Source: a virus. From it: a DNA stretch of 15,876 nucleotides. The notes beneath the pieces were generated by a model, which did no database searches, was not told the DNA's origin, and saw only the letters and a program-made list of their open reading frames with translations. Of this stretch, positions 1-15,876 are shown piece after piece; position 1 is the stretch's first letter; each line of letters starts with the position of its first letter. The DNA is taken from UHGV virus genome UHGV-0274280; one strand, given 5' to 3'. A program made the translations under genes and the position numbers.

Positions 1-143
1 GTATATACAAACCCACAAACCAAATTTTCGTTCATAGCATATATTAAGTTTGTAAGATTGATTCCGTTATTTTCAATCGAACTGACGATTTTATGTTCAT
101 GCAAAGACATTTTATCAGATTTATTTTTAATTAAATTATTCAT
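1..143 (-). CDS. hypothetical protein, 5' part only (gene continues beyond window start)
   Basis: ATG at 143 with AAGGAG 6 nt upstream; frame stays open to the window edge (MNNLIKNKSDKMSLHEHKIVSSIENNGINLTNLIYAMNENLVCGFVY...). The ATG lies 8 nt inside the upstream recombinase gene, suggesting translational coupling. Not in the ORF track because under 60 aa within the window. AT-rich. Confidence 0.35.
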   Translation of the reverse strand, partial: MNNLIKNKSDKMSLHEHKIVSSIENNGINLTNLIYAMNENLVCGFVY

Positions 144-1338
144 CAAATTCTCCTTTGAATAGTTGCTCTTGTTGTTCAAGTGCAGTTTTTTTCGATAGCT
201 CATAAATATGCCTGCGATTATAAATCATTGAAGTTTCTGAACCCGGTCGCCATCCCATGAGATAAGAACGGATTTGTTGCTCTTTTTCATCGGATATGTC
301 CTGATTCTTGTCTATTGCTTTCGAAAACTCATAATTCCATGTATGTCTGAGTTTGTGACCTGTCAATCCCCCTAGAAGTGAGGAGGATTGACGAACAACA
401 CTCACCACTTTGTGATATGAAGAAAATGAAATAGGTTGCCCTTGAGTTTTTCCTTCCTTATAAGTAATAAACAGGAAATCATGTTTGTTAGAATTTTTTA
501 TGTTTCTTCGATCATTCAGAATATAATCTGAAATTTCAAACATGAGCTTTTTATCAGCAATTAATTTCCTCTCACAAGTTTTAACTAAAGGCTGATACAC
601 TCGCGGATCTGTTTTATCATTTGCTCTTCTTCTTATTGCAATTGTCGATTCTGCAAAATCTATATCACCCATTCGCAGATTCAAAAGTTCACCTGCTCTC
701 AGGCCAAAGCAGTGTAATAGCAGGAATATTAGATTGTTTCTTTTTTGCACTTTTTCTGAAAATGGATTTAATTTGCTACCCGGTGCAAGAATGCTAAACA
801 AAGAATCCAATTGTTCATTATTTAAACTTTTTTCTTTATCCATAGTATATTTATCATTATTTCTCGGTTTCTTTCGTTTTATGTTGTTAATGAAATCTAA
901 AATATATTTGAGAGTATCCTTCTGTCCTGTATGAGAAAGATGTATTTTGCACAGCCATTCCAGATAGTTAGCTATGGTTGTTATCCGAAAGTACTTAGTT
1001 GGTTTTTTGACATTTGAACTTCTAAAATTATCATTCTCGCCATCTCGAAAATTGAATGAAGTGAATTCGATCAAATCTTCAATTTCATGAGGAGCCAGAA
1101 ATATCCTTTTCTGAATTCTTTCATCAATATTGATATTTTTTCTCATAAAGAATCGATATAACAATGAAATGCTCCCAGCGATAACCTTCATTGTTGATAT
1201 AGACTCTGACCGATTCCTGACTTGTGTTGTTATATACAAGTTTGGATAATACAATGGCTCACCAGTATCTTTATTTACAACATGACAATATCTCTCACCA
1301 TTTTCGAACATAAAAGAATCCACACAAATACTGCACAT
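136..1338 (-). CDS. tyrosine-type site-specific recombinase / integrase-family protein (400 aa)
   Basis: Catalytic-domain signatures of the tyrosine recombinase family: box I-like LLLHCFGLRAGELLNLRMGDID (Arg), HKLRHTW (H-x-x-R), C-terminal SMIYNRRHIYE (candidate Tyr). ATG at 1338 with AGGAGG 5 nt upstream. Very AT-rich, unlike the other two integrases. Confidence 0.65.
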   Translation of the reverse strand: MCSICVDSFMFENGERYCHVVNKDTGEPLYYPNLYITTQVRNRSESISTMKVIAGSISLLYRFFMRKNINIDERIQKRIFLAPHEIEDLIEFTSFNFRDGENDNFRSSNVKKPTKYFRITTIANYLEWLCKIHLSHTGQKDTLKYILDFINNIKRKKPRNNDKYTMDKEKSLNNEQLDSLFSILAPGSKLNPFSEKVQKRNNLIFLLLHCFGLRAGELLNLRMGDIDFAESTIAIRRRANDKTDPRVYQPLVKTCERKLIADKKLMFEISDYILNDRRNIKNSNKHDFLFITYKEGKTQGQPISFSSYHKVVSVVRQSSSLLGGLTGHKLRHTWNYEFSKAIDKNQDISDEKEQQIRSYLMGWRPGSETSMIYNRRHIYELSKKTALEQQEQLFKGEFDE

Positions 1339-1446
1339 ATTTTCCTCCTAAACTTTACAAAAAGTATAATTCCAATATATTAATAATAAGCATTTCGTAG
1401 ATTTACAAATTTATTTGGATCGATTAAGATATTTATTTAAATTAAA

Positions 1447-1539
1447 ACAGTGAGATAGACGATTATTCTTGTCAAATTATCATCTGGTAGATCTAGTTAT
1501 TATTATGTACACCTAATACTTTGAAAACTATCTCACTGT
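1447..1539. repeat. perfect 12-bp inverted repeat pair (ACAGTGAGATAG at 1447-1458, CTATCTCACTGT at 1528-1539) flanking a 69-bp spacer
   Basis: Read directly from the sequence; lies in the 5' intergenic region of the recombinase gene. Confidence 0.7.
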
Positions 1540-1620
1540 CTTGCTAATAAACGGCAACCAAAATAATGTAAGTTATTTTGTAAGGTTTTAAGCCAAAATA
1601 TGGGGCCAAACTTTACATTT

Positions 1621-1935
1621 TTACAAAAGAGTTTTCAGCCCAATCTGATATCGAATTATCCGTTTCGATAAATTTCTAATTTCATCTGGGCATTTAATTA
1701 GCGAGAACCATGTTTCATACACATAAAACTGTTCGAAAATATTAAGCTCAGAGATCGAATCTAACGGTTCTCTTAGATTCCCCACTAAATACTGGCTTAA
1801 CCAGTAAACAATCTTTCTGTTAAATTCATTATCAGGTAAATCGTAAATCGCTCCGGGTTCGAAGATTTTACAGAAAAGTTCCTGGCCCAGATTACACATA
1901 TGGTTATCTTCACTCACAAATTCTTCGATATTCAT
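1621..1935 (-). CDS. hypothetical protein (104 aa from ATG at 1935; the ORF track starts 5 codons earlier at a TTG)
   Basis: ATG at 1935 with GGGAGG 6 nt upstream; only 20 nt after the alpA stop, so probably co-transcribed. AT-rich, no recognisable motif. Confidence 0.45.
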   Translation of the reverse strand: MNIEEFVSEDNHMCNLGQELFCKIFEPGAIYDLPDNEFNRKIVYWLSQYLVGNLREPLDSISELNIFEQFYVYETWFSLIKCPDEIRNLSKRIIRYQIGLKTLL

Positions 1936-1955
1936 AACATGCCTCCCCAAATTAA

Positions 1956-2171
1956 CTAAGCAACATTATTTCGACTTGTTTCGATAACAGACTGAATCCA
2001 GGCATCAATCTCACTTTCGACGAAAGCTACTGCACGAGTTCCAATTTTGACAGGGGCAGGAAACTTACCATCTTTGATCAGACGATAGACCCAGGCTTTG
2101 CCGAAACCAGTTCGTTTCAAGACTTCGGGTAAACGAATTAAGCTTTGATTGGTTGTATCGGTTGTATTCAT
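1956..2171 (-). CDS. alpA: AlpA-family phage transcriptional regulator / excisionase-like HTH protein (71 aa)
   Basis: LIRLPEVLKRTGFGKAWVYRLIKDGKFPAPVKIGTRAVAFVESEIDAWI follows the AlpA pattern (RLPEV..TG.....Y......FP.P.K.G.R.....E...W). Strong RBS GGAGGAGG 7 nt upstream of the ATG at 2171. Confidence 0.75.
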   Translation of the reverse strand: MNTTDTTNQSLIRLPEVLKRTGFGKAWVYRLIKDGKFPAPVKIGTRAVAFVESEIDAWIQSVIETSRNNVA

Positions 2172-2337
2172 TTGGCTACCTCCTCCGCTTCCGTTACGAA
2201 GATATTAGCCACACAGATTCGTATCTATGAAGGGAATGCTGATAACTGAAAAGTTAGATGAGGGAATAATGAAAGGAAATTCCGGGGAAGAAAAATATTT
2301 ACGCCCTCCCCTTGACAATTAACATGATGATTTACAA

Positions 2338-3147
2338 CTAGAAAGATCCGAGTTCCGAAATCGGTATGTTGCGGAGATGGCTGTTTTTGCTGATAAAATA
2401 TTCCAGACTACGGGTTGTTTCGCCATTCAATGACTTCTCTGCAACAGGCCTATCTGTATCTTTAATGTGATCTTCTCCTCTGATCTCATTTGTAAAGTCG
2501 GGATACAAGACACGAGACAAGACCATATTTGAGATTTTTACTTTTTTAAACTTTGCCCAAATCAATAAATCCATCATTGGGATAATATTGTAATCGACAA
2601 GTTTTCTTATTTTTGCAAGTCCAATTTTTTCTGTTTTCACTGGCTCAATTTCATATTCTTTTCTAAGATCTGGTAGCATCGTTTGTAAGGCTGTTATAAT
2701 TTCTTCATCGCTGGACATTCCTAAATCAAATGAAACATACATCTTGCTGCTATTTTGGTTTAGAAAAAAGTCCCTCATAGTTTTTGTAATTGGTTTCTTT
2801 TTCAACTCTTTTTTGAAATCGCCATTTTCTTCAAAAAAATCCATGCTAAACATTATTAACTTGTTCTCTAATTTTTTTATATCACCAAAGCTAACTTGCG
2901 CAACATGCCTTTGGCCCTTGCCAAAATGACCATGATTATTATCTTGTCTGCTTAAAATAGGATTACCTTCAAGGATAGACCTTAAATTTTGATTATCATC
3001 TTCCCATCCAAAATTTACACTGTCGAAAATCGCTTCTCTAAAGGCAAGCTCAGTATGCAGTTCTTTGATTGTAAGTGATTTTAACTGCTCATAGTTTTCG
3101 AGACTAAACCAGCTTTTTAATTCTTCATAAGGGCTTACTACTTTCAT
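2338..3147 (-). CDS. hypothetical protein, orphan cargo gene (269 aa from first ATG at 3147; 276 aa if the TTG at 3168 is used)
   Basis: Long ORF in AT-rich DNA between the P4-type integrase and alpA; GGAGG about 5 nt upstream of the ATG at 3147. No family recognised by eye. Confidence 0.5.
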   Translation of the reverse strand: MKVVSPYEELKSWFSLENYEQLKSLTIKELHTELAFREAIFDSVNFGWEDDNQNLRSILEGNPILSRQDNNHGHFGKGQRHVAQVSFGDIKKLENKLIMFSMDFFEENGDFKKELKKKPITKTMRDFFLNQNSSKMYVSFDLGMSSDEEIITALQTMLPDLRKEYEIEPVKTEKIGLAKIRKLVDYNIIPMMDLLIWAKFKKVKISNMVLSRVLYPDFTNEIRGEDHIKDTDRPVAEKSLNGETTRSLEYFISKNSHLRNIPISELGSF

Positions 3148-3204
3148 TAATCCCTCCACTGTATTCAAAGCTTGAATGAGTTAACACTGCTTATTTGAAT
3201 TAAT

Positions 3205-3232
3205 TCTCCCTTAACAAGATTGATAAGGGAGA
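3205..3232 (-). terminator. putative hairpin downstream of the P4-type integrase gene (8-bp stem TCTCCCTT / AAGGGAGA, 12-nt loop)
   Basis: Inverted repeat 27 bp past the int stop, followed on the minus strand by A/U-rich but not U-run sequence, so a weak intrinsic terminator at best. Confidence 0.3.
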
Positions 3233-3258
3233 GCGATTGATCATCTACTTATTCATAG

Positions 3259-4509
3259 TTAACTCTTTTTAAAATCAAATGGTGAAACTTGTCGTATTCT
3301 AAGGAGGTCAAGGTAATCGGCCCACCACTGCAACATAAGCTTTCTCTCATCAAGGTGCTCTGCTTTATGTATGTACGCAGCACGAACTGAGTTCCGCTCC
3401 TGATGGCTCATTTGCCGTTCAACAGCATCTTTCGACCACAAACCGGATTCAATTAAAGCACTACAAGCCATAGCTCTGAATCCATGTCCACAGACCTCCA
3501 CGGTTGTGTCATAGCCCATAGACCTCAAAGCCTTGTTTACCGTATTTTCACTCATGGGCTTTCTGAAATCATGGTCGCCAATGAACACGAGTTCATGGTC
3601 ACCGCTGATCTCTTTAATTTCCGTCAACACAGCCAATGCCTGACAACTCAAAGGAACAAGGTGTGGAGTTCGCATTTTCGAACCACGATGCGAATGTTTC
3701 ACTCCGGGTAATGGCTCTCGCTCTGCAGGAATAGTCCACATGGCATTGTCGAAATCTATCTCTGACCAACGAGCAAACCTGAGTTCACTCGAACGAATAA
3801 AAATGAGCAATGTAAGCTTTACGGCTAACTTCGTGAGCTTTCTACCTTTGAATATTTCAATTCGCTCTAGGAGTTCAGAGAAGCGATCAAACGGTAATGC
3901 CGGTCGGTGGGTTCTTTTTGCTACAGCAATAGCCCCAGACATTTCTTGGGCCGGATTATAGTCAATTAAGCCATTCTGGACGGCATATCGCAAAATTGCT
4001 GTGGTTCGTTGTTGTAGACGGGCTGCTACTTCTAACCGTCCAGAAGCTTCAACAACCTTGATCGGAACGAGTAGATCCTTGGTTTTAAGCTCGGCTATTT
4101 TTCTCTTTCCTATGAAAGAGAAAAGGTTATCTTCAAGGCTCTTTAAAACCCTCTCACTATGGGAATCTGACCATTTCCTTTTACAGGCAGTATGCCAGTC
4201 CCTTGCAACAGCTTCGAATGTCAGGGCTTCGCTTTGCTCGATTTTGTCTGCTTTTTTCTTTTCTGAGGGGTCGAGACCAAGCGATACTAATTTTTTGGCT
4301 TCATCCCGTTTCTTGCGGGCTTCACTAAGAGAGACCATTGGATAAACACCCAATGCTAAAACTTTCTGTTTGCCATCGAAACGGTATTGGAGTCGCCAGT
4401 ACTTCGAGCCGTTAGGATTGATCAGCAGGTGCATACCCTGCCCATCGGTGAGTTTGAAGGGTTTGTCGGAGGGCTTGGTAGTCCTAACTTTGATATCGGT
4501 GAGAGCCAT
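3259..4509 (-). CDS. int: P4 / CP4-57-type tyrosine integrase (416 aa)
   Basis: N-terminal arm-binding region (KPSDKPFKLTDGQGMHLLINPNGSKYWRLQYRFDGKQKVLALGVYPMVSLSEARKKRDEAKKLVSLGLDP) typical of P4-like integrases; catalytic region with HGFRAMACSAL and ...RAAYIH. ATG at 4509 with GGAGG 9 nt upstream. Confidence 0.85.
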   Translation of the reverse strand: MALTDIKVRTTKPSDKPFKLTDGQGMHLLINPNGSKYWRLQYRFDGKQKVLALGVYPMVSLSEARKKRDEAKKLVSLGLDPSEKKKADKIEQSEALTFEAVARDWHTACKRKWSDSHSERVLKSLEDNLFSFIGKRKIAELKTKDLLVPIKVVEASGRLEVAARLQQRTTAILRYAVQNGLIDYNPAQEMSGAIAVAKRTHRPALPFDRFSELLERIEIFKGRKLTKLAVKLTLLIFIRSSELRFARWSEIDFDNAMWTIPAEREPLPGVKHSHRGSKMRTPHLVPLSCQALAVLTEIKEISGDHELVFIGDHDFRKPMSENTVNKALRSMGYDTTVEVCGHGFRAMACSALIESGLWSKDAVERQMSHQERNSVRAAYIHKAEHLDERKLMLQWWADYLDLLRIRQVSPFDFKKS

Positions 4510-4601
4510 CAGTTGATACCTCCAGTGTTGGTACCAAAATCAATCGAACCGGGAATACCATCAGTTATACCATCATCAGTTGGTATATGTTCAAGGAATT
4601 G

Positions 4602-4681
4602 AGTAGACGTAGACAGACTAAGAAAAGCCAGAAACCTGCTTAACTTACTGTTTTTATGGACTAAAGTAGACGTTAGTAGAC
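4602..4681 (+). repeat. direct repeats AGTAGACGT (4602-4610, 4665-4673) and AGTAGAC (4675-4681); putative arm-type integrase binding sites
   Basis: Three copies of the 7-mer core, two spaced 10 bp apart, between the integrase start and the tRNA-end fragment, where att arm sites are expected. Confidence 0.4.
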
Positions 4682-4698
4682 TTGAAAAAAGCTTTGTA

Positions 4699-4729
4699 TG
4701 GTGCCGAAGGCCGGACTCGAACCGGCACG
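4699..4729 (-). other. 31-nt tRNA 3'-end fragment (T-arm, acceptor 3' strand, CCA); leuX / tRNA-Leu-like; putative att core or direct repeat
   Basis: Reverse complement reads CGTGCCGGTTCGAGTCCGGCCTTCGGCACCA: T-stem GCCGG/CCGGC, T-loop TTCGAGT, CCA end. It matches my recollection of the last 31 nt of E. coli leuX. The upstream sequence does not supply the complementary acceptor 5' strand (GCCGAAG), so this is not a complete tRNA gene. Confidence 0.6.
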
Positions 4730-4862: not shown

Positions 4863-6071
4863 ATGAGTTTCAAGAGAGATCGTTATCTAGTTTTAGATCC
4901 CTGCGGGAATTACCTCGTGCGGATAGCTATCCCCAGCTATATGCGTCACCTGTTCCAAGGGAAACGCTACTTTATGAAAAGCACAGGGACACGAGACATA
5001 CGGCAAGCGCGATTGTTTCGCGATGCTATTGCTCTGGAATGGACTCGCTTACGGAATCTGCTAAAGCCACAAGGCGGCTCATCTGTAGACCAAATCATTG
5101 ATGAGCTACGCCGTGTCAGTGTGTACGCCAAGGAAGCCCCCGCATCGTTTGGTGCATCGATTCAGGCTTGCCCTTCCTTGCTAAAAATGCGTGATTTGTA
5201 CCTGCTTCAATACAGCGAGAAGCGAAAGCTAACCACGCTATCCAAGACCAATAAAGCCGTAGAGGTGCTGTTAACCCACCTGAAAAAGAAAGATGTTCAG
5301 TTGCGAGATATTAACCGAACCATAGTTACAGGCTGGTTAGATAAACTCAAAACTGAGCGAGCGCCCCAAACCATCCAGAACTATATCAGTGCACTGGCGC
5401 AGATATGGGATTTGGCACGCAATCGCTATCACGATGCGCCACAGGATAACCCTTGGCGTGGTCATGCACTCGAAGCAAAAAGCAGCAAGGTCAGCTATGA
5501 AGTCTTCGCACCGGGAGAGCTGGCAAAGGTCTATACCTTGCTTGATGACGAGATGAAGGCGGTAACGGCTATTGGTGCTTACAGCGGTATGCGGATCAAT
5601 GAAATATGTACGCTGCGTGAGAGCAGTATTAAAACCATCGAGGGCGTTTTGTGCTTTGAGATCACCGAGGGGAAGACCAAGAGCGCGGCACGAATCGTCC
5701 CAGTACACAGCAAGCTAATCCCCCTCGTGAAATCATTGCTCAAAACCACACATAGCGGTTTTCTGTTCTATCACGCGTCAATTACAGACCGGGCGGATGG
5801 GAAGCGCTCAACGTGGCATACGCAGCAGTTCACACGGGCAAAGCGTAAAGCTCTTGGCGAACTTGCCGCAGAGAGAAAAGTGTTTCACTCACTCCGCCAT
5901 GCGTTTGTGCAACAACTCGACCGTGCTCAAGTGCCAGAAGATAGGATCGCTCTGCTTGTAGGCCACGAACGAGGTAGCACTGAGAGTTTTAAGACATATT
6001 CAAAAAACGCAGCATCCCCTTTAGAGATGCGCCGGTATATTGAATTAATAGATTATGAATTAATTAAATGA
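4863..6071 (+). CDS. int: tyrosine-type phage integrase (402 aa), different family from the P4-type one
   Basis: N-terminal YLVRIAIPSYMRHLFQGKRYFMKSTGTRDIRQARL pattern common to phage/island integrases; C-terminal HSLRHAF (H-x-x-R) and LLVGHERGSTESFKTYSK (candidate Tyr). Transcribed away from the tRNA fragment. Confidence 0.8.
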   Translation: MSFKRDRYLVLDPCGNYLVRIAIPSYMRHLFQGKRYFMKSTGTRDIRQARLFRDAIALEWTRLRNLLKPQGGSSVDQIIDELRRVSVYAKEAPASFGASIQACPSLLKMRDLYLLQYSEKRKLTTLSKTNKAVEVLLTHLKKKDVQLRDINRTIVTGWLDKLKTERAPQTIQNYISALAQIWDLARNRYHDAPQDNPWRGHALEAKSSKVSYEVFAPGELAKVYTLLDDEMKAVTAIGAYSGMRINEICTLRESSIKTIEGVLCFEITEGKTKSAARIVPVHSKLIPLVKSLLKTTHSGFLFYHASITDRADGKRSTWHTQQFTRAKRKALGELAAERKVFHSLRHAFVQQLDRAQVPEDRIALLVGHERGSTESFKTYSKNAASPLEMRRYIELIDYELIK

Positions 6072-6106: not shown

Positions 6107-6580
6107 CTATGCAGCCGCTTCTGTTATACGTTCTCGATATTGTTTAGCTTCATCTATCCACATTTGTATTGCTTCTTGATTGTCCCAATTTGCATGGGCA
6201 TCATGATCAATAAAATCAACAATATAGTAGTGCCTTGTACCTGAGAATACAAAATACGAATATATCAAATAGCTGTTACTTTTACATTTCCATTGTACCA
6301 GTGGATGCCCATTGTCATCCTCCCAGACACTGTCTTCCTGCCTCACATGTAGATGTGTTAAACCTTCTCTTTTCTGATGATACGGCTTATCTTCATCAAC
6401 ATTGTCCCTATCTCTGCCAAAGAGCAGCGAAATAGATGCAAAAAGTTTTTGGATGGAATATCGGGGGCGGGAATGCTCTGCACTTAGTTGCTTATAGCGA
6501 CAGAACTCCTGATAAAAAGGAAGAAACTCGCCATCATTGGCGAGTTTTTCACAGCAATCAAACTCAATTGCAAGCGGCAT
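6107..6580 (-). CDS. hypothetical protein (157 aa), AT-rich moron gene
   Basis: ORF whose ATG at 6580 lies inside the 3' end of the upstream small ORF; AT-rich relative to the flanking operon; no family recognised. Confidence 0.5.
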   Translation of the reverse strand: MPLAIEFDCCEKLANDGEFLPFYQEFCRYKQLSAEHSRPRYSIQKLFASISLLFGRDRDNVDEDKPYHQKREGLTHLHVRQEDSVWEDDNGHPLVQWKCKSNSYLIYSYFVFSGTRHYYIVDFIDHDAHANWDNQEAIQMWIDEAKQYRERITEAAA

Positions 6581-6896: not shown

Positions 6897-7325
6897 TTAT
6901 GCTGGATAAATAATACCCAGCCCCTTGTAGTGGCGGCGGTAGGCTGGTAGCATGAAATTCATGCTACCGGGTGAGAGTCCACACACCCGCCCTACATAAT
7001 AGCCACCCTCAGCAGCATTAGCAGAGCGATGCACCACAGCACGCACGCGCCCGGTTCGGTGGCAGTGATCCAGCACGGCAGACGCAAGGCGCAGCGGCTT
7101 ACCTGTCACCGCACAGCGTCGGTATTGATAATTCCACAGGAAGACACGGACAGCGGCCACATCAGCGCGGCGCAACTCCAGCCGCCCGGAACCATTCAAC
7201 AGGAAGCGATAAACATCTTCGAATGCAGCAGCGTTTGTAATCCGTTCCGCCAGTGGCATATTGCCAAGGTGTTCCAGATAGCCCCGCATAGCTTTTCTTA
7301 ATAGCTGGTCTGTCCGTGTAACCAT
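6897..7325 (-). CDS. endonuclease VII-like (T4 gp49-type Holliday-junction resolvase family) protein, divergent (142 aa)
   Basis: CAVTGKPL...LDHCHRTGRVRAVVHRSANAAEG resembles the Endo VII core (C..C...LDHDH..G.VRGLLC..CN.AEG) but the second Cys pair is replaced by His/Ala. Confidence 0.55.
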   Translation of the reverse strand: MVTRTDQLLRKAMRGYLEHLGNMPLAERITNAAAFEDVYRFLLNGSGRLELRRADVAAVRVFLWNYQYRRCAVTGKPLRLASAVLDHCHRTGRVRAVVHRSANAAEGGYYVGRVCGLSPGSMNFMLPAYRRHYKGLGIIYPA

Positions 7326-8024: not shown

Positions 8025-8534
8025 TTAGGCAGCCTGCAATAAATCGGCTGGCGTTGAGGGATGGCATCTGGCTTTAGCTTTTAGATAGGCAGCACGCGCC
8101 GCCACTTCGGTAGTAAATAAGCCAAGGTGACGGAGTACACCATCAACGCGTATGTAAGCCTCCCATTTTCTACAGCCCTTATTCCAGCTATACCCCCTTG
8201 CCTTGCGTCGGTTCTGGTCGTTTTCCCGCTGCGTAACCAAGCGCAGATTGCATAGGCGATTGTCGTCACGGATACCGTTGATGTGATCGATCTGCTTACC
8301 ATGAGGAATAGCGCCATGCGCAAGAATCCACGCCACGCGATGGGCTTTTAGCTGGTACTGCTTGCCATCAAGTCGCAGGGCAACTTGACGATAGCCATCA
8401 GCTCGCCGGGTGGAGTCAGCATAGGAGCCAGCCTTAACCCGGCGTCGGTTAGCTTTATGGTGCAGGCGGCCTGTCACCGGGTCATACAGGAAAAGGGAAC
8501 ACAGCAGCTCAGGGGCGTAAGCATCATTAACCAT
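8025..8534 (-). CDS. HNH endonuclease with AP2-like DNA-binding domain (169 aa)
   Basis: HRVAWILAHGAIPHGKQIDHINGIRDDNRLCNLRLVTQRENDQN is a typical HNH_3-type motif, followed by GYSWNKGCRKWEAYIRVDGVLRHLGLFTTEVAARAAY (AP2-like). GGAGG 9 nt upstream of the ATG. Confidence 0.75.
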   Translation of the reverse strand: MVNDAYAPELLCSLFLYDPVTGRLHHKANRRRVKAGSYADSTRRADGYRQVALRLDGKQYQLKAHRVAWILAHGAIPHGKQIDHINGIRDDNRLCNLRLVTQRENDQNRRKARGYSWNKGCRKWEAYIRVDGVLRHLGLFTTEVAARAAYLKAKARCHPSTPADLLQAA

Positions 8535-8550: not shown

Positions 8551-9546
8551 TTATGCAGCTTGTCGGAAATTGATAACGCAGTCAGGACGACGCAGCCCAA
8601 CGTTGAACAGGCGATATGAGTCCATCACCATTGTCATTTCGCGTTCATCATCCCACTGGCGATTGATGACGCTCTGCGCTTCGACCGTCAGCAGCACAGA
8701 GGAAGGTTTAAACAGCGTCGCCCTCGTCATCGCTTCCTCTGCGGTAACGTCATAATCAGCGCCCAGTTCATGCCCGGTAATGACTTCCTGCGGGTAACTG
8801 TTCAGCTCAATGACTCGCACCCCAGCGACATAGCCAACGCGACGCCATGCGTAATCGTTGCCACTATCCCGGCTGTAACGGACGTTCATCAGCTTCTTAT
8901 GTTCCATCAGGATGCTGAACCATGCAGGGTCAATGAGAAGCACCAGCTCGGCCACCGGAATATCTTTCTCAGTGAGGAAGCGATTAGCAGCCGCTTTGAC
9001 GGCGTGAACCAATTCGTTTGCGGCGTCCTCTTCGCTCCCCGCTGTCAGGTCGAGCGAGACAACGTTATTCGTAAGCGGGTTAAACGTTGGTTGCAGTGTC
9101 GGCGGCGGTACAAAGTCAGTCGCTTTGATTAACTGGATGGTGTGCGCTTCGTCGTAGAACTTAGCGTGCGCAGTGCCGATATTGCGGCTCAGCTCTGCGC
9201 GAAATGTGGGTGCTGTCCAATCGTCCTGATAGTCAATCGGGACGCGGATATAACTCAGCGTATCCACAGAGATAACCAACTTGTCCGACTTAACGGCGGT
9301 AGGCTCCAGCGATTGCCCTGCGGTTCTGCCCTTCACCTCAAGATCACCACTCAGGCGATCAATGCGGTATTGGTTGCTGCCTTTCAGCGGCCTGTATGTA
9401 GACAGCCCCTCGGCCAGAAATACGGATTTGGACTCTAAACGGGTCTGGACATCCCGGTCATAAGCCTCGATGTGAATATCATTGTCGGATTCCACCCCGC
9501 CATAATGTGGGCGAAACAGATCGGGACTGTACGAAGTATCAGCCAT
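8551..9546 (-). CDS. major capsid protein homolog, T7 gp10-like (331 aa from ATG at 9546)
   Basis: By-eye block alignment to T7 gp10A from memory: KLVISVDTLSYIRVPIDYQDD...RAELSRNIGTAHAKFYDEA vs KVITIDGLLTADVLIYDIED...RSEYTSQLGESLAMAADGA, and FLTEKDIPVAELVLLIDPAWFSIL vs LTKNYVPAADRVFYCDPDSYSAIL. Similar length (T7 gp10A is 345 aa). AGGAG 8 nt upstream of ATG 9546; the ORF track start at 9591 has no RBS. Confidence 0.6.
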   Translation of the reverse strand: MADTSYSPDLFRPHYGGVESDNDIHIEAYDRDVQTRLESKSVFLAEGLSTYRPLKGSNQYRIDRLSGDLEVKGRTAGQSLEPTAVKSDKLVISVDTLSYIRVPIDYQDDWTAPTFRAELSRNIGTAHAKFYDEAHTIQLIKATDFVPPPTLQPTFNPLTNNVVSLDLTAGSEEDAANELVHAVKAAANRFLTEKDIPVAELVLLIDPAWFSILMEHKKLMNVRYSRDSGNDYAWRRVGYVAGVRVIELNSYPQEVITGHELGADYDVTAEEAMTRATLFKPSSVLLTVEAQSVINRQWDDEREMTMVMDSYRLFNVGLRRPDCVINFRQAA

Positions 9547-9744
9547 AAACAAAACTCCTACGTAGGTTGATGAAGCCCGCGCCATCGTCATGGCACAGAC
9601 GTGCGGAATCCTCCCGCCGAGGCAGGATTCAGAACGGTATCGATTAAAGGGATGAGGTGCCCCGAAATGGGCGTTTTGAGGCCAGAGCTGGCGCGGTTCT
9701 CAGGGGTTAGTGCGCGTGAAGTAAGGCGAACGTATTACCTTGCA

Positions 9745-12030: not shown

Positions 12031-12203
12031 AAATTAAACTCCGAATCAAATTTGATCTGGTCAGTAACCAACGTGTGAATCAGCGCAAGGCTTGACGCGG
12101 TGTGTGTGCCCGACTTGCGGGCGTTGTCGTACATGAAGCGGACTACACGTTGATATTTCTCCGGCAGCGTGGCGAACCATTGCCGGAACTGTTCAGGGGT
12201 CAT
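12027..12203 (-). CDS. hypothetical small protein (58 aa), absent from the ORF track
   Basis: MTPEQFRQWFATLPEKYQRVVRFMYDNARKSGTHTASSLALIHTLVTDQIKFDSEFNL; its start overlaps the upstream stop (caATGAcc) and its stop overlaps the downstream start (ttATGAct), closing an apparent 170-bp gap in the operon. Confidence 0.35.
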   Translation of the reverse strand: MTPEQFRQWFATLPEKYQRVVRFMYDNARKSGTHTASSLALIHTLVTDQIKFDSEFNL

Positions 12204-12409
12204 TGGTCGTCATCCTCCGGGAACACGTTGTTAAAGGTTGTATCAGGCGAGTCGGCGGCGTTCTGCTTGAGGAAGTTCACGCAGGATGACAACTCGGCAG
12301 CAGCCATGCGTGACTCTCCCGCCTCGTCCTCCTTAAGCCTGCGCGTCAACGCACCCAGCAGCAGGGTTTTTAGTTCCCATGCTCCGGCTTCAAATTCAGA
12401 TTTCGTCAT
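12200..12409 (-). CDS. hypothetical protein (69 aa)
   Basis: ATGA overlap with the upstream 145-aa gene; acidic C-terminus. Confidence 0.4.
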   Translation of the reverse strand: MTKSEFEAGAWELKTLLLGALTRRLKEDEAGESRMAAAELSSCVNFLKQNAADSPDTTFNNVFPEDDDQ

Positions 12410-12880: not shown

Positions 12881-14725
12881 TCAGAGGTATTTAGCGATGT
12901 ACTGCCAGTTGCAGTTTTCAGGGCGGTAGAAGTAAGCAAGCTCATCAGGCGCAACATCCAGCGCCAGCGATGACCACAGCAGAAAAGCGCGGGCAGGTTC
13001 CCCATCGCGCCCGGCTCGTCCAATCATCTGAACGAGATCAGGCAAATCATCGGGGACGTATGTCACGACAACGTTACGGATATCAGGAACATCAGCACCC
13101 AGCCCGAAGGCTTTAGTAGCAATAAGAATCGCGCCCGGCGTAGAGGCAAACCACTCAGCGTTTGCGTGGCGTTCCTCGTTGCTCAGGTGCATCGTCTTCG
13201 AGTGATATGGCCGCGCCCGGTCGCCCAAGAGTTTCAGGTACGCCCGCAACGTTTTAAGGTCATTGACGAGAATAAGCGTCTTCTCTTCTTTCGGCAGAGC
13301 CTCGACCAGACCAATAGCCGCTCGGAAACGTTCGCGGCACTGTCTGACTGGCGTCAACTGGATATTCTCGCGAGCAACATCAGCGCGGAATGTTACGTAA
13401 TCGCCACGGCAGCCAAGCGACTCCATTAAACTGCGCTCATTTTCGCGTAGCAGCGTAGCCGTAAACACGCAGCGTTGAGCCGAAGGAAAGGCATTCTGTA
13501 GTGTGTGCTGCATTGCGTCGTAAGCTGGGCGGAAATCCCAGTCTTTGACCGTGTGTGCCTCATCGATAATAAAACGATCAACGCCATAAGCCATCAGCGC
13601 CGCGAGAACCTGACTCGACGGAACCAGATGTTCAGGCGAAACGACTGCAACCCGGAACGCCCCGGCAGCCAGCCCCGCCAGTTGTTGCGCATTGCGGTGC
13701 CTCGGCAGCTTGTCACCAAATGCCACAGCGTGAACGCCAGCCTCCCGCAACTGGCGGAGAATCTGACGCTTAAGGGTATTAGTAGGAACAACGATAACAG
13801 ACAGGCCAACGCCAGCGCGGGATTCATAAATCAATGGGTAAGTGAAGGCAGCGCTTTTGCCATACCCAGTAGGCAGAACGGCAAGCACATCACTGCCACG
13901 GGAAAAGATCGCATCAGCAACAGACAATTGCCCCGGCCTCCACTCCAGCCCATCAGGTGGCAGCAGGCTAACGCGTGCGTTTCGGTCACAGCGAGCCAGG
14001 GGGCGGAACTCATACGGCGTAGTATTCAGTGGCGGCACAGACGGCGAAGCAGCCAAGCCGTTCGGGTCACAATGATGATTTGTATTATTAAATCTATCTT
14101 CGGTAGGCTTCGACTCTCCACACCAAAATTGACGAAACTCCCCTGAGTCTCCGTAGCGTTTGAAATCTGCGTTACGCATCGCTTCCAGTTTACCCATGCC
14201 CCTGTTAATTCGGCGCATGGTCTTCTCATCGCAAATGAGAAACTCGCGGCAGGCTTTGAGAAAAGCATTCTGTCCGGTTGTTGATTCCGGCACGGCGTGC
14301 TCGCGCGGTTTCAATGCGGCATCGTCTACGCGAACGCCGGGGAAATCTGGCGGCAGTGGTTCAACATAACGAGCAGGCTTTTTATTTAGCCATTGCTCAA
14401 TCTCAGCGCGTCGGCAGTGAATCGCGTCGCCGGGCTGGATGACTTGCCGCAACCCAGCGTCAGAGCGCTGTTTTTGTTTCTTCGGTTGAACACCGTGCAG
14501 CGTTCGCCACTCCCGCAAGGTCATCGCGGAGCCATCTGCATTGTAATAAAACTCTTCGGTCTTTGTGTTGTATGCCGCCTTAACGGGCTTACGCTTTACG
14601 GGGCATATCTTGGAACGTCGAATAACAACCCCGTCAGCGATCATTTGCTGTACATCTGCGTCCGCAGTATTGAGCGGGTCAGCGTCGGCAGCCTGCGCAA
14701 GCAGGCGGCGTAGGTTTGTTGGCAT
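12881..14725 (-). CDS. RecQ-family DEAH-box superfamily-2 DNA helicase with ~270-aa N-terminal domain of unknown function (614 aa)
   Basis: Walker A LAVLPTGYGKSAAF, motif II FIIDEAHTVKDWDFRPAY (RecQ signature DEAH...W..DFRP.Y), motif III VFTATL, C-terminal ILIATKAFGLGADVPDIRNVVVTYVPDDLPDLVQMIGRAGRDG. GGAG 8 nt upstream of the ATG. First gene of the operon. Confidence 0.8.
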   Translation of the reverse strand: MPTNLRRLLAQAADADPLNTADADVQQMIADGVVIRRSKICPVKRKPVKAAYNTKTEEFYYNADGSAMTLREWRTLHGVQPKKQKQRSDAGLRQVIQPGDAIHCRRAEIEQWLNKKPARYVEPLPPDFPGVRVDDAALKPREHAVPESTTGQNAFLKACREFLICDEKTMRRINRGMGKLEAMRNADFKRYGDSGEFRQFWCGESKPTEDRFNNTNHHCDPNGLAASPSVPPLNTTPYEFRPLARCDRNARVSLLPPDGLEWRPGQLSVADAIFSRGSDVLAVLPTGYGKSAAFTYPLIYESRAGVGLSVIVVPTNTLKRQILRQLREAGVHAVAFGDKLPRHRNAQQLAGLAAGAFRVAVVSPEHLVPSSQVLAALMAYGVDRFIIDEAHTVKDWDFRPAYDAMQHTLQNAFPSAQRCVFTATLLRENERSLMESLGCRGDYVTFRADVARENIQLTPVRQCRERFRAAIGLVEALPKEEKTLILVNDLKTLRAYLKLLGDRARPYHSKTMHLSNEERHANAEWFASTPGAILIATKAFGLGADVPDIRNVVVTYVPDDLPDLVQMIGRAGRDGEPARAFLLWSSLALDVAPDELAYFYRPENCNWQYIAKYL

Positions 14726-15114
14726 GGTGAAATCTCCAGAAAATAGGGGTAGGTATTAGCTCAGGTTGGGGCGGTGGTACAGGTGCGGCAGACTCTCTGC
14801 CCTTATAGAGGTTTTCATGTCGGCAACAGTGTCAGTGTCTTTATCTGCCTTAATAGTCACTTTCAAAATCGGAGAGTTTGTCGCGCTTCGGGAGTTATTC
14901 TTTCTCCTTAGTAGATACCTTCATTAGGTCAATTTTTAACCACAACCTCGCTAAGCCTTACTGAGCCTGGGCTGGCAATACTTAACAGCGCGATTTTTGT
15001 CGGTCAAAAGCGGGAAAGTAATGCTCTATATCTCCTTATTAGTAGCCTTTAAAATTAAAAATATAAGTTACTGATATCAATAGATAATTATGAAAGTGTC
15101 TATAGTGATATAGT

Positions 15115-15600
15115 ATCGCTAGATACGCAGAGCGAGCGCGGCGCAGCCGAAACAAGCGAGCGCCGAACTGATGACGGATGGCAGACCGTAGGACTGACAG
15201 ACGGCAGACAGTGAAGGCAGTAGGACAGGTGACAGACAGTAACCGTGACGGCGTGCCATAGCTGGCAGTAGCACAGCAGGCAGTAAGACCAATGACCGAC
15301 GGCTAAGACCTGAAAGGAAACGAAAAAGAAAGATGATTGAACGATACAGAAATGAATGAAGATGTTTTGAAGAATACCTACCGATAACAGTATATGATTG
15401 ATTAAATTAACAATACCGATAAAGAGTACCGTTCCACTACACATCCCCGCCGCGTTGCCTGCCACGGCAAGCACGGTTGCGTAGAGTCGCCGAGCATCAG
15501 CAGCGGGCGAAGACCGGGAATGAGCCAAAGGCGATGGAGCGGGCTGGAGCATAGCGAGAAGCGCAGCAAGTGAAGAGAGCGAAGCACTCGTAACTACATT
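15115..15600. repeat. T-depleted, purine-rich non-coding region with short degenerate repeats (GGCAG x5, GGCAGTA x3, GACAG x5, AGCGAGCGC x2, GCGAAG x3)
   Basis: About 10% T in sampled 60-nt lines between 15121 and 15300. GGCAG starts at 15180, 15203, 15216, 15264, 15279; GACAG at 15196, 15207, 15224, 15231, 15235. No ORF of 60 aa or more on the plus strand. Confidence 0.5.
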
Positions 15601-15876
15601 TAGGAGAAGGGATGTAAGGGAAGAACCCTTTCCTGTACATGTATTTCAAATGCAACTTTAAAGATACTACTAACGTGTTGACCAGCTTCAAATCTAGCTT
15701 AGTGATTGGACAACGCAGCCTTTGATCCCTTCCCCTGCCCCATCCCTCGAATTGTTCAGTGATAACTCACATTCACAATCTGATCTCGATGTTCATCGTC
15801 TGGCACGGCTAAAGCCCCGCCACCTCTTCACATCGAGAGCCGCAAGTAACACGAAAATACATTATAAATCATATCG

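Follow-up and report, generated by a model that had tools for sequence, protein, structure and literature searches.

A RecQ-like helicase with an orphan modular N-terminus in an island that looks like a satellite of virulent Bonnellvirus phages

The island and its genes

The window analysed here, that is the entire stretch of 15,876 nucleotides of the virus genome UHGV-0274280, contains part of an E. coli island of about 14.7 kb that is integrated at a tRNA-Leu gene and of which the helicase gene (positions 12881-14725, minus strand) is a syntenic core gene. One boundary lies at 4700-4723 (minus strand), where a copy of the tRNA-Leu 3' end forms the att repeat (an exact match of 24 nt, with none expected by chance), and the second is at a leuX tRNA about 3.4 kb past the window end; the same repeat, of 25 nt, bounds contig L046, and a tRNA-Leu is present in L001. 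Annotation and locus comparison place the tyrosine integrase of the element at 4863-6071 (plus strand). On the minus strand, profile scans of the segment 6897-8534 revealed an EndoVII-like nuclease (6897-7325), two orphan ORFs and an HNH endonuclease (8025-8534). A Bonnellvirus-like major capsid protein gene stands at 8551-9591 (minus strand; phrog_267, E 7e-71), and an ORF of 69 aa at 12200-12409 (minus strand) resembles the N-terminus of the Bonnellvirus small terminase (48% identity over 44 aa, pairwise E 4e-6). The capsid is the sole recognised structural gene, as profile scans and locus comparison found no portal, large terminase or tail genes in the island.

Scanned with PHROG and Pfam, the proteins of the operon gave only capsid, HNH, EndoVII and HTH matches. 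None of the ten proteins scanned besides the helicase matched a replication protein; by these searches, the helicase stands alone in the conserved core as a replication-type enzyme. It is fixed, with the same core genes in constant order, in all 13 loci compared (from Escherichia, Enterobacter, Kosakonia, Kluyvera and Trabulsiella), and the cargo at the element ends is variable, consisting of YafO, an acetyltransferase or an Eco29kI restriction-modification system. Few parts of the element diverge as much as the helicase and the DNA upstream of it, whereas the capsid is 91-100% identical within the E. coli group. The preliminary description had the helicase leading an operon, which holds for the window, where it comes first in a tightly packed co-directional array extending down to 6897, but not for the family, as in sister elements it is preceded by a paralogue of part of its N-terminus (100 or 83 aa) or by pRha and HNH genes.

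Bonnellvirus phages are virulent phiKMV-like Autographiviridae and relatives of T7. The capsid protein of the element shares 54-56% aa identity with those of Lidtsur, glasur and J8-65, its EndoVII resembles the one encoded by Bonnellvirus, and the island is about one third the size of a Bonnellvirus genome (41-42.5 kb). It presents the generic traits of a satellite, namely an integrase and an att-bounded island far below helper size, without a full virion or lysis set, together with features that derive from a helper or mimic it, the capsid, the TerS-like fragment and a non-coding block all being Bonnellvirus-like. PHROG and Pfam scans found no P4 alpha, sid, psu or delta, no PICI alpA, pri-rep, terS or ppi, no cfPICI portal-protease-head and no PLE repA markers. 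Judged from its sequence, the island looks like a previously undescribed satellite of virulent Bonnellvirus phages, and its virus-prediction call as a provirus looks wrong; our literature search retrieved neither a satellite of Bonnellvirus or T7-like coliphages nor a RecQ-type satellite helicase. The IMG/VR match to the element is an integrated copy with flanking tRNA rather than a packaged genome, and the element is found in well-studied strains such as EPEC E2348/69.

A RecQ-type motor with an orphan N-terminus

The ORF encoding 614 aa is a real gene, as confirmed by its translation from an ATG start in the ORF list, by the RefSeq entry WP_023277342 (DEAD/DEAH box helicase) and by domain matches. 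Residues 261-590 (12956-13945, minus strand) form a RecQ-type SF2 helicase core according to Pfam, NCBIfam, alignment and structural matches. Pfam places DEAD over residues 264-428 (E 1e-21) and Helicase_C over residues 478-575 (E 5e-14), and the top NCBIfam matches are recQ (TIGR01389, 154.3 bits) and recQ_fam (TIGR00614, 143.4 bits), both under the respective cut-offs of 640.2 and 219.8 bits. The series of motifs comprises motif 0 (WRPGQ at 262), I (LPTGYGKS at 284), Ia (VVPTNTL at 312), II (DEAH at 388), the RecQ aromatic-rich loop (WDFRPAY at 396), III (TATL at 422), V (at 536) and VI (QMIGRAGRDG at 566). Their degeneration on proper alignment, named beforehand as a possible refutation, was not observed: all motifs are intact, and the key residues are invariant in an alignment of 88 sequences including 26 canonical RecQs. 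The AF2 model of the core reaches a pLDDT of 80-93, and its closest PDB structures are the catalytic cores of RecQ, BLM, RECQ1 and WRN (E about 1e-21), so that the proposed RecQ-type core is borne out.

The protein thus shares with the bacterial RecQ core (E. coli and Cronobacter; PDB 1OYW, 4TMU, 6CRM) an SF2 DEAH motor with motifs 0 and I-VI and the aromatic-rich loop, at about 28-36% identity. Canonical RecQ relatives in our searches carry RQC and HRDC domains, whereas in the element helicase Pfam detects neither the RQC region (zinc-binding subdomain PF16124 and winged helix PF09382) nor HRDC (PF00570); the tail past motif VI, of 25-30 aa, has a single Cys, and 260 aa of orphan sequence precede the core. 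As predicted from these profiles, the protein is a RecQ-like SF2 DNA helicase in which a family-restricted N-terminal region replaces the zinc, winged-helix and HRDC domains.

A defence or anti-defence helicase had been named as an alternative role. Carriage as cargo of a stand-alone anti-phage helicase, similar to DpdF or to PsyrT/RqlH, would agree with the PADLOC model PDLC02858 ('DpdF', 916 bits), with other DpdF models (150-180 bits), with PsyrT (136 bits) and with the NCBIfam DpdF model NF041063, whose 127 bits compare with a cut-off of 550 bits. PDLC02858 spans residues 112-614 end to end and was therefore apparently built from this helicase family, so that it does not constitute independent evidence. 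DpdF, from the Dpd 7-deazaguanine DNA-modification and restriction island, is likewise a RecQ-like helicase on a mobile island, and PADLOC files the family there; the element helicase has no dpdA-K neighbours and sits in a capsid-bearing satellite. Neither a further Dpd gene nor a PsyrA-like partner is present in the window, and the ORF of 145 aa downstream of the helicase has no PADLOC, Pfam or NCBIfam match, the adjacent PsyrA/RqlI antitoxin partner being absent. Moreover, the helicase is a fixed core gene in every locus compared, whereas the cargo at the element ends varies. We consider a defence function highly improbable, and the 'DpdF' label given to the family by PADLOC looks wrong.

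The N-terminus had been said to match nothing recognisable, which proved correct: residues 1-260 have no family in Pfam, PHROG, NCBIfam, PDB sequences or a structural search, and exhaustive HMMER searches matched only the helicase family itself, which is restricted to Enterobacteriaceae. Domain search and structure prediction, suggested beforehand as a check, assigned no well-known family and no structural match. The region is coding and constrained (dN/dS 0.07-0.33); its model is poor (pTM 0.28) and of low confidence except at residues 30-80 and 150-200. It is modular, with at least two autonomous modules. Module A (aa 1-90; 14456-14725, minus strand) is predicted to be a basic unit of beta-hairpin and helix, with a pLDDT of 80-86 over residues 30-80 and a pI of 10.2 over the strongly basic residues 31-95; its residues 1-87 recur in P0139, a free-standing paralogue of 100 aa that L004-type elements encode immediately in front of the helicase (43% identity, E 2e-18). 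Module B (aa 120-200; 14126-14368, minus strand) is characterised by the conserved motif PPDFPGVRVDD..LKPREH..GQNAFLKACREFLIC and a helical hairpin, with helices predicted by AF2 at residues 152-201; its residues 120-198 recur as a free-standing ORF of 83 aa upstream of the helicase in the Enterobacter element L002 (39% identity, E 2e-16).

The linker of aa 206-260 (13946-14110, minus strand) is variable, with no more than 55-58% identity between helicase alleles, and is predicted to pack on the helicase core; in the full-length model, its residues 220-260 have a pLDDT of 83-87. It carries the C/H-rich stretch to which attention had been drawn and which is not conserved in the helicase family: C203, H218 and H219 are variable, C219 is replaced in the two distant members P0079 and P0082, and of the Cys and His residues compared only C165 and C246 were invariant. 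A zinc-finger or metal-binding reading of the stretch is therefore ruled out. As for an origin-binding domain fused to the helicase, the basic character of module A agrees with the proposal, but profile and structural searches recognised no DNA-binding or initiator fold in residues 1-260.

Instead of DNA, the N-terminal modules may bind proteins of the helper (its RNA polymerase, DNA polymerase, primase or helicase), with the free-standing paralogues competing and thereby tuning this interaction. Among E. coli-group comparisons, residues 91-150 are under the tightest constraint (dN/dS 0.065-0.08) and are 90-93% identical where the helicase core is 73%, and they are predicted to be unstructured, as is typical of a protein-docking motif. 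Such an adaptor would also account for the occurrence of modules A and B in sister elements as small ORFs of their own, shortly upstream of the helicase, and for the behaviour of module A alleles, which, in a test of origin specificity, did not co-vary with the type of upstream DNA. Indeed, L047 and L067 combine a window-type module A with an L004-type upstream region and core, and L062 has a window-type helicase throughout, yet a different upstream region. On the other hand, the very basic module A suits nucleic-acid binding, and the searches found no similarity of the N-terminus to helper proteins or known interaction domains. We hold the adaptor explanation to be unlikely.

Non-coding DNA upstream of the helicase

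The preliminary description pointed to a repeat-rich non-coding neighbour with repeats at 15115-15600. The upstream DNA is special, as supposed, but the family-wide repeats lie at 14794-15054, and part of 15115-15600 is a near-copy of the non-coding Bonnellvirus left end rather than a set of element-specific iterons. Motif scans identified at 14794-15054 (minus strand) an array of four co-oriented copies of AATGAARG-N3-CTA-N-TAAGG-N-AGA (14794-14820, 14842-14868, 14900-14926 and 15028-15054), pointing toward the helicase. The motif occurs in all family loci examined, in 3-9 copies that are always on the same strand, and resembles the Bonnellvirus motif AATGAAAGTAACTGT. The top matches of a PWM built from phage sites alone fall upstream of the helicase, with a score of 19.5 at -201 that exceeds all 100 shuffles. 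In the phages, the motif occupies syntenic sites typical of promoters, one at the left end, one close to 5.6 kb and one immediately past the RNAP gene, and matching positions are held by the own repeat of phiKDA1 and by predicted promoters of JG068 (PMC3765740). Scans of 14500-15876 found no sigma-70-like promoter, and neither Rfam families nor terminators were found in the upstream region. Exact-pattern scans of IMG/VR for a phage with multiple copies of the satellite motif returned single chance-level matches only. As to phiKDA1, considered as helper of the Enterobacter-type element, it was rejected, having no motif copies and a 54-nt match that looks like coding similarity.

The positions 15062-15291 (plus strand) form a block with homology to non-coding DNA at the Bonnellvirus left end, as seen by blastn against phages and by alignments (87-97.6% identity over 166-230 bp, E down to 7e-80, in 16 records of which 15 are of Bonnellvirus type). 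Its phage counterpart lies 150-310 bp inside the left terminal repeat, and the satellite non-coding region has no similarity to the terminal repeat itself. The block holds a motif copy, TTATGAAAGTGTCTATAGTGAT (15088-15109, plus strand), and GACAG/GGCAG short repeats. An AT-rich tract (15030-15115, GC 0.22, no strand assigned) separates the motif array from the GC-rich part of the block. The block is shrunk to 35-44 nt in L004, L062 and L065 and was undetected in L002 and L066-L069 when compared with three phages. Because 15062-15291 is a near-copy of the phage left end, its recognition by helper factors is no less probable than by the helicase.

Two other candidate features of this region were rejected. 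The sequence ATCACTATAGACAC at 15096-15109, considered as a T7-type promoter facing the helicase, is a single match at chance level; it is the reverse complement of the Bonnellvirus-type motif, which is directed away from the helicase. Similarly, the ORF at 15100-15552 (150 aa) is unannotated in all 59 matching genome records, its product is of low complexity and hydrophobic, and it overlaps the block homologous to non-coding phage DNA.

Possible role of the helicase and comparison with known systems

The helicase had been proposed as a replication initiator. A replication-linked role is still the best reading, although no origin-binding activity was shown for the N-terminus: the protein could serve the satellite as a replication helicase of its own, acting on an origin-like region that derives from the helper, which we regard as quite possible while giving it less than an even chance. 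This reading is favoured by the intact RecQ-type motor, the constrained modular N-terminus with its strongly basic module A, the fixed synteny and the lack of any other replication-protein match in the operon. It also draws on the helper-like block and AT-rich tract directly upstream, on the directional motif array in every member examined, and on the promoter-typical placement of the phage motif, the phage-only PWM peaking upstream of the helicase where no sigma-70-like promoter was seen. The divergence of the helicase and its upstream DNA beside a stable capsid fits as well, because replicon-specificity modules behave in this way.

Several observations argue against it. The block derives from the helper, whose own proteins could therefore recognise it unaided by the helicase; the N-terminus has no initiator fold, module A and upstream DNA do not co-vary, and the block is reduced or undetected in several loci. 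Array copies inside one element differ mutually more than is usual for the T7-type promoters of one phage, and the IMG/VR scans gave no phage with multiple satellite-type motif copies. To our knowledge, the initiator-helicases of satellites and phages are of SF3, SF4 or RepA_N type, and not of SF2 RecQ type.

RecQ-family enzymes are branch-migration and D-loop/R-loop helicases, and the protein could accordingly process DNA or interfere with the helper instead of initiating replication, acting with the EndoVII-like and HNH nucleases on branched intermediates, either preparing satellite concatemers for packaging or disrupting the recombination-dependent replication of the helper in favour of the satellite. 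The helicase is weakly matched by phrog_6819, a family of Holliday-junction branch-migration helicases, and is always co-inherited with the EndoVII-like and HNH genes, the former resembling the helper's own. In addition, the cis block taken from the helper could bring in the helper replisome with no need of a satellite initiator. However, the nucleases stand about 5 kb downstream with no specific link to the helicase, and the position next to an origin-like region and the shared allelic divergence better suit a replicon module. We regard a processing role as somewhat unlikely.

Under the preferred replication reading, infection by a helper phage would come first, after which the single-subunit RNA polymerase of the helper would transcribe the helicase-to-capsid operon from the promoter-like motifs at 14794-15054. 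The N-terminal modules would then tether the helicase to the adjacent origin-like region (the AT-rich tract together with the cis element copied from the helper's left end, 15062-15291), or to replication proteins of the helper assembled there. The RecQ motor would unwind the excised element, helper polymerase would copy it, and the copies would be packaged in capsids made with the satellite's own capsid protein.

More tentatively, and with some doubt as to the whole, the element may belong to a satellite family that would be the first recognised for virulent coliphages of the T7 supergroup (Bonnellvirus). It would be switched on by helper RNAP through a copied promoter-like motif array and would replicate from a copied helper left-end origin. 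Its orphan N-terminal modules would dock a RecQ-type helicase to the origin or to the helper replisome, with the free-standing copies as regulators, and it would build capsids of about one third size from its own capsid-protein variant. The E. coli satellites known to us (P4-like, PICI, cfPICI) parasitise temperate phages; one that preys on strictly lytic T7 relatives relevant to therapy would, if true, be a new kind of phage-host-parasite interaction in a model organism, and its candidate helpers have already been isolated on K-12. As a minimal RecQ motor whose DNA-recognition domains are swapped for orphan modules, the helicase would offer a natural experiment in SF2 helicase targeting, and the helper-derived block and motif array lead to testable predictions on induction by helper RNAP and on origin or packaging mimicry.

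Like P4 alpha, SaPI/PICI Pri-Rep and PLE RepA, the putative replication gene of the element lies beside a repeat-bearing AT-rich region in an island of roughly 10-18 kb with known or presumed helper dependence, and, as in rep-ori modules, the helicase and its flanking DNA diverge allelically. Those proteins are of SF3/AAA+ or RepA_N type with demonstrated iteron binding, whereas that of the element is of SF2 RecQ type and its binding is putative; PLE depends on the helicase of its helper. A further difference from P4, PICI and PLE is that the neighbouring region is in part a copy of helper DNA. The T7 secondary origin phiOL and the SRL short-repeat arrays beside the terminal repeat are what we take to be the positional counterpart of the helper-homology block. 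In Bonnellvirus, the block inside the left terminal repeat carries a motif resembling a promoter and short repeats with a strand bias, and its motif points toward that terminal repeat, another arrangement than at phiOL. PLE (Vibrio cholerae and ICP1) and PICMI (Vibrionaceae) are chromosomal islands of strictly lytic helpers devoid of most structural genes (PMC10803314, PMC9410903), as the present element appears to be. It differs from both in host clade, helper family and gene content, encoding a helper-like capsid and a RecQ-like helicase.

The element around the helicase

The helicase gene (12881-14725, minus strand) starts with ATG, encodes 614 aa and carries the annotation 'DEAD/DEAH box helicase'. 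It is a fixed part of a syntenic gene set that all 13 related loci share. The window belongs to the chromosome of E. coli EC09, and of 5426 complete E. coli genomes, 60 contain this region, EPEC E2348/69 among them. In order, the set has a resolvase, a long non-coding region, the helicase and seven small ORFs, one of them with an HTH, and continues with a capsid gene, an HNH gene, two orphans, an EndoVII-like gene, variable cargo and, on the opposite strand, a tyrosine integrase; an additional HTH gene is present in some loci only. About 14.7 kb separate a 24-nt att copy of the tRNA-Leu 3' end (4700-4723) from the other boundary, the leuX tRNA past the window end, and one assembly contig consists exactly of the element alone, flanked by the tRNA-Leu repeat.

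The capsid protein (phrog_267) shares 54-56% identity with capsids of Bonnellvirus, virulent phiKMV-like Autographiviridae of 41-42.5 kb, and the element's EndoVII resembles that of Bonnellvirus. Along a stretch of 44 aa, a 69-aa ORF of the helicase operon (12200-12409, minus strand) shares 48% identity with the small terminase of Bonnellvirus at its N-terminus (E 4e-6 in pairwise comparison); this ORF may redirect packaging. Domain and PHROG scans of the element proteins recovered no portal, large terminase, tail or lysis genes, and the helicase is the sole recognised replication-type enzyme among them. One somewhat unlikely role would be that of a branch-processing or helper-interference enzyme that works alongside the two nucleases, EndoVII and HNH. 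In the literature searched, neither an element like this one nor any satellite that exploits Bonnellvirus or T7-like coliphages was found described; the main interest of the helicase lies in this apparently undescribed satellite around it and in links to isolated helper phages that lend themselves to direct tests.

The cargo slot between EndoVII and integrase holds a YafO-family toxin in the window (6107-6580, minus strand), and an acetyltransferase (L004, L047) or a 201-aa ORF (L046) in sister elements; L046 also has an Eco29kI restriction-modification system in its tRNA-proximal slot. The Enterobacter-type element L002 has an extra HNH gene ahead of the helicase. Beyond the att copy follows a second, tandem island (1-4699), with its own tyrosine integrase (3259-4509, minus strand) and low-GC ORFs (136-1338 and 2338-3168); in L001, a locus holding the window region and its flank, this island also has DUF1819/DUF1788 BREX-type genes truncated by IS1. 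One element copy with flanking host tRNA-Leu is filed as a 'viral' contig (L061, IMG/VR UViG 3300011142_000025), and the 0.8% 'Autographiviridae prophages' reported in a study of the E. cloacae mobilome (PMC13612085) may represent such satellites, with the capsid gene as the cause of the misclassification. In phage phiKDA1 (L144), the HNH gene (24242-24718) sits between the scaffold and capsid genes and is annotated as similar to the HNH endonuclease of E. coli O127:H6 (E2348/69), probably that of the satellite, a hint that Autographiviridae and these satellites exchange genes.

Promoter-like motifs and helper-derived DNA

Scans of the non-coding region upstream of the helicase detected no sigma-70-like promoter, terminator or Rfam match. 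Four co-oriented copies of the motif AATGAARG-N3-CTA-N-TAAGG-N-AGA (14794-15054) point at the helicase. In all family members examined, three to nine copies precede the helicase operon, invariably on this strand and with none elsewhere within 15-30 kb; the nine copies of L002 (7938-9237) are spaced by 33-91 bp, some within the 3' end of an annotated Phage_pRha gene.

A related motif, AATGAAAGTAACTGT, occurs in the Bonnellvirus phages J8-65 (L142; 548, 5664, 19630, 19870) and Lidtsur (L007; 41432, 5999, 19775, 20015) at four syntenic positions: one at the left end, one at about 5.6 kb and two past the RNAP gene, the first of them directly behind it and the second about 240 bp farther along. Such positions are typical for phage-RNAP promoters of phiKMV-like phages; the description of JG068 agrees with this placement (PMC3765740), and phiKDA1 has its own exact repeat at 410, at 3520 and just past the RNAP gene. 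At two of the four sites, AATGAAAGTAACTGT includes an ATG annotated as start codon (MKVT...), and the left-end copy lies on the opposite strand, aimed at the terminal repeat. We regard AATGAAAGTAACTGT as a candidate promoter, with or without a role in translation start. When a weight matrix derived from the phage sites alone was run on the satellites, its top matches fell upstream of the helicase, scoring 19.5 in the window (at -201, exceeding all 100 shuffles), 23.6 in L046 and 27.2 in L047.

A block at 15062-15291 shares 87-97.6% identity (E down to 7e-80) with non-coding DNA of 15 Bonnellvirus-type phage records, in which it is located 150-310 bp inside the left terminal repeat. The block of a sister element matches the phages at 90-94%, and in comparisons with three phages it was shortened or undetected in some family members. 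It contains a motif copy aimed at the terminal repeat and strand-biased GACAG/GGCAG short repeats, and adjoins an AT-rich tract (GC 0.22). Since the block is far closer to the phages than the capsid gene (65% nucleotide identity), its similarity argues for a cis-acting site that the helper machinery must recognise. The preliminary description had proposed repeats at 15115-15600 as a target of the helicase; this non-coding DNA is special, but the repeats overlap the block and are largely helper-derived. The ~280 nt that directly follow the resolvase gene (15709-15876 in the window and onward in L001:20910-21189) are about 90% conserved even between element types whose other non-coding DNA is unalignable. 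They hold GATGACCTACAGC as a pair of direct repeats set 57 bp apart, together with an imperfect inverted repeat of 22 nt, and may serve as a res site or packaging site or encode a small RNA.

The N-terminal region

Residues 1-260, part of the N-terminal stretch left unassigned at first, found no match in Pfam, PHROG and NCBIfam (window protein and 12 homologues) or in a PDB sequence search, and exhaustive HMMER against 1.84 billion representative proteins returned only their own family and its fragments. This family comprises about 70 clusters (614-635 aa), restricted to Enterobacteriaceae, and a full-length relative is present in only 8 of 185,579 species-representative genomes (Kosakonia, Kluyvera, Trabulsiella and five Enterobacter). 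Because dN/dS is 0.07-0.33 in every segment, we consider the region genuinely coding; segment 91-150 is under the strongest constraint of the entire helicase in E. coli-group comparisons. A metal-binding motif in the supposedly C/H-rich, zinc-like stretch was rejected, since C203, H218 and H219 vary across the family and C219 is substituted in two distant members.

Directly upstream of the helicase, L004-type elements encode a 100-aa paralogue of residues 1-87 (P0139; 43% identity, E 2e-18), and L002 an 83-aa paralogue of residues 120-198 (39% identity, E 2e-16). The helicase, first described as the leading gene of the operon, is thus not first in every element, and these free-standing paralogues indicate that its N-terminus is assembled from at least two autonomous modules, a modularity that is a new observation. 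The first, module A (residues 1-90), has a strongly basic character (pI 10.2). Compared segment by segment over 14 loci, the identities form a mosaic of module A, residues 206-260 with the core, and upstream DNA, three parts that by this comparison recombine independently; module A and the upstream DNA type show no co-variation. No DNA-binding fold is recognisable in the N-terminus, and the helicase might be an adaptor binding helper proteins rather than DNA, which we hold to be unlikely.

Proposed role and likeness to RecQ

The most economical reading, possible although short of an even chance, is that the element is a Bonnellvirus satellite and the helicase its own replication helicase. The helicase and capsid operon would be expressed from the helper-RNAP promoter-like motifs, the helicase would act at the adjacent origin-like region formed by the AT-rich tract and the helper left-end copy, and the N-terminal modules would target the RecQ-like motor to DNA or helper proteins. 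The origins of T7 itself, in which AT-rich DNA follows a phage promoter, provide an analogy for this region. Of the initiator role advanced in the preliminary description, a replication-linked function beside special non-coding DNA is plausible, but an origin-binding domain is hypothetical. We stay tentative because of the missing DNA-binding fold and the behavior of module A, because no known satellite initiator is an SF2 enzyme, and because recognition of the copied site could be left entirely to helper factors.

Defence, the other role proposed at first, is very improbable. The PADLOC 'DpdF' model PDLC02858 (504 positions) does align over its full length, at 916 bits, with residues 112-614, but for that reason it appears to have been built from the satellite helicase family, in which case it would yield misleading DpdF calls in Enterobacteriaceae. 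The curated DpdF model gives 127 bits for a cut-off of 550 bits, no Dpd or PsyrA partner is present among the neighbouring proteins scanned, and the helicase gene is core, not cargo.

The RecQ-type motifs first noticed in this ORF are intact. Pfam DEAD and Helicase_C match residues about 261-590, for which RecQ models are the top curated matches; the SF2 motifs are complete (0 WRPGQ, I LPTGYGKS, Ia, II DEAH, III TATL, V and VI QMIGRAGRDG), the RecQ-specific aromatic-rich loop is present (WDFRPAY), and key motif residues are invariant in alignments with canonical RecQs. The AlphaFold2 model is of high confidence over the core, with the catalytic cores of RecQ, BLM, RECQ1 and WRN as top PDB matches (E about 1e-21). 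The protein scores below the RecQ family cut-offs of curated models and ends ~30 residues past motif VI, whereas its canonical relatives possess Zn-binding, winged-helix and HRDC domains, all three absent here. On account of this score and these missing domains, we classify the helicase from its sequence as RecQ-like rather than as a RecQ proper, and regard it as a new form of RecQ-like helicase.
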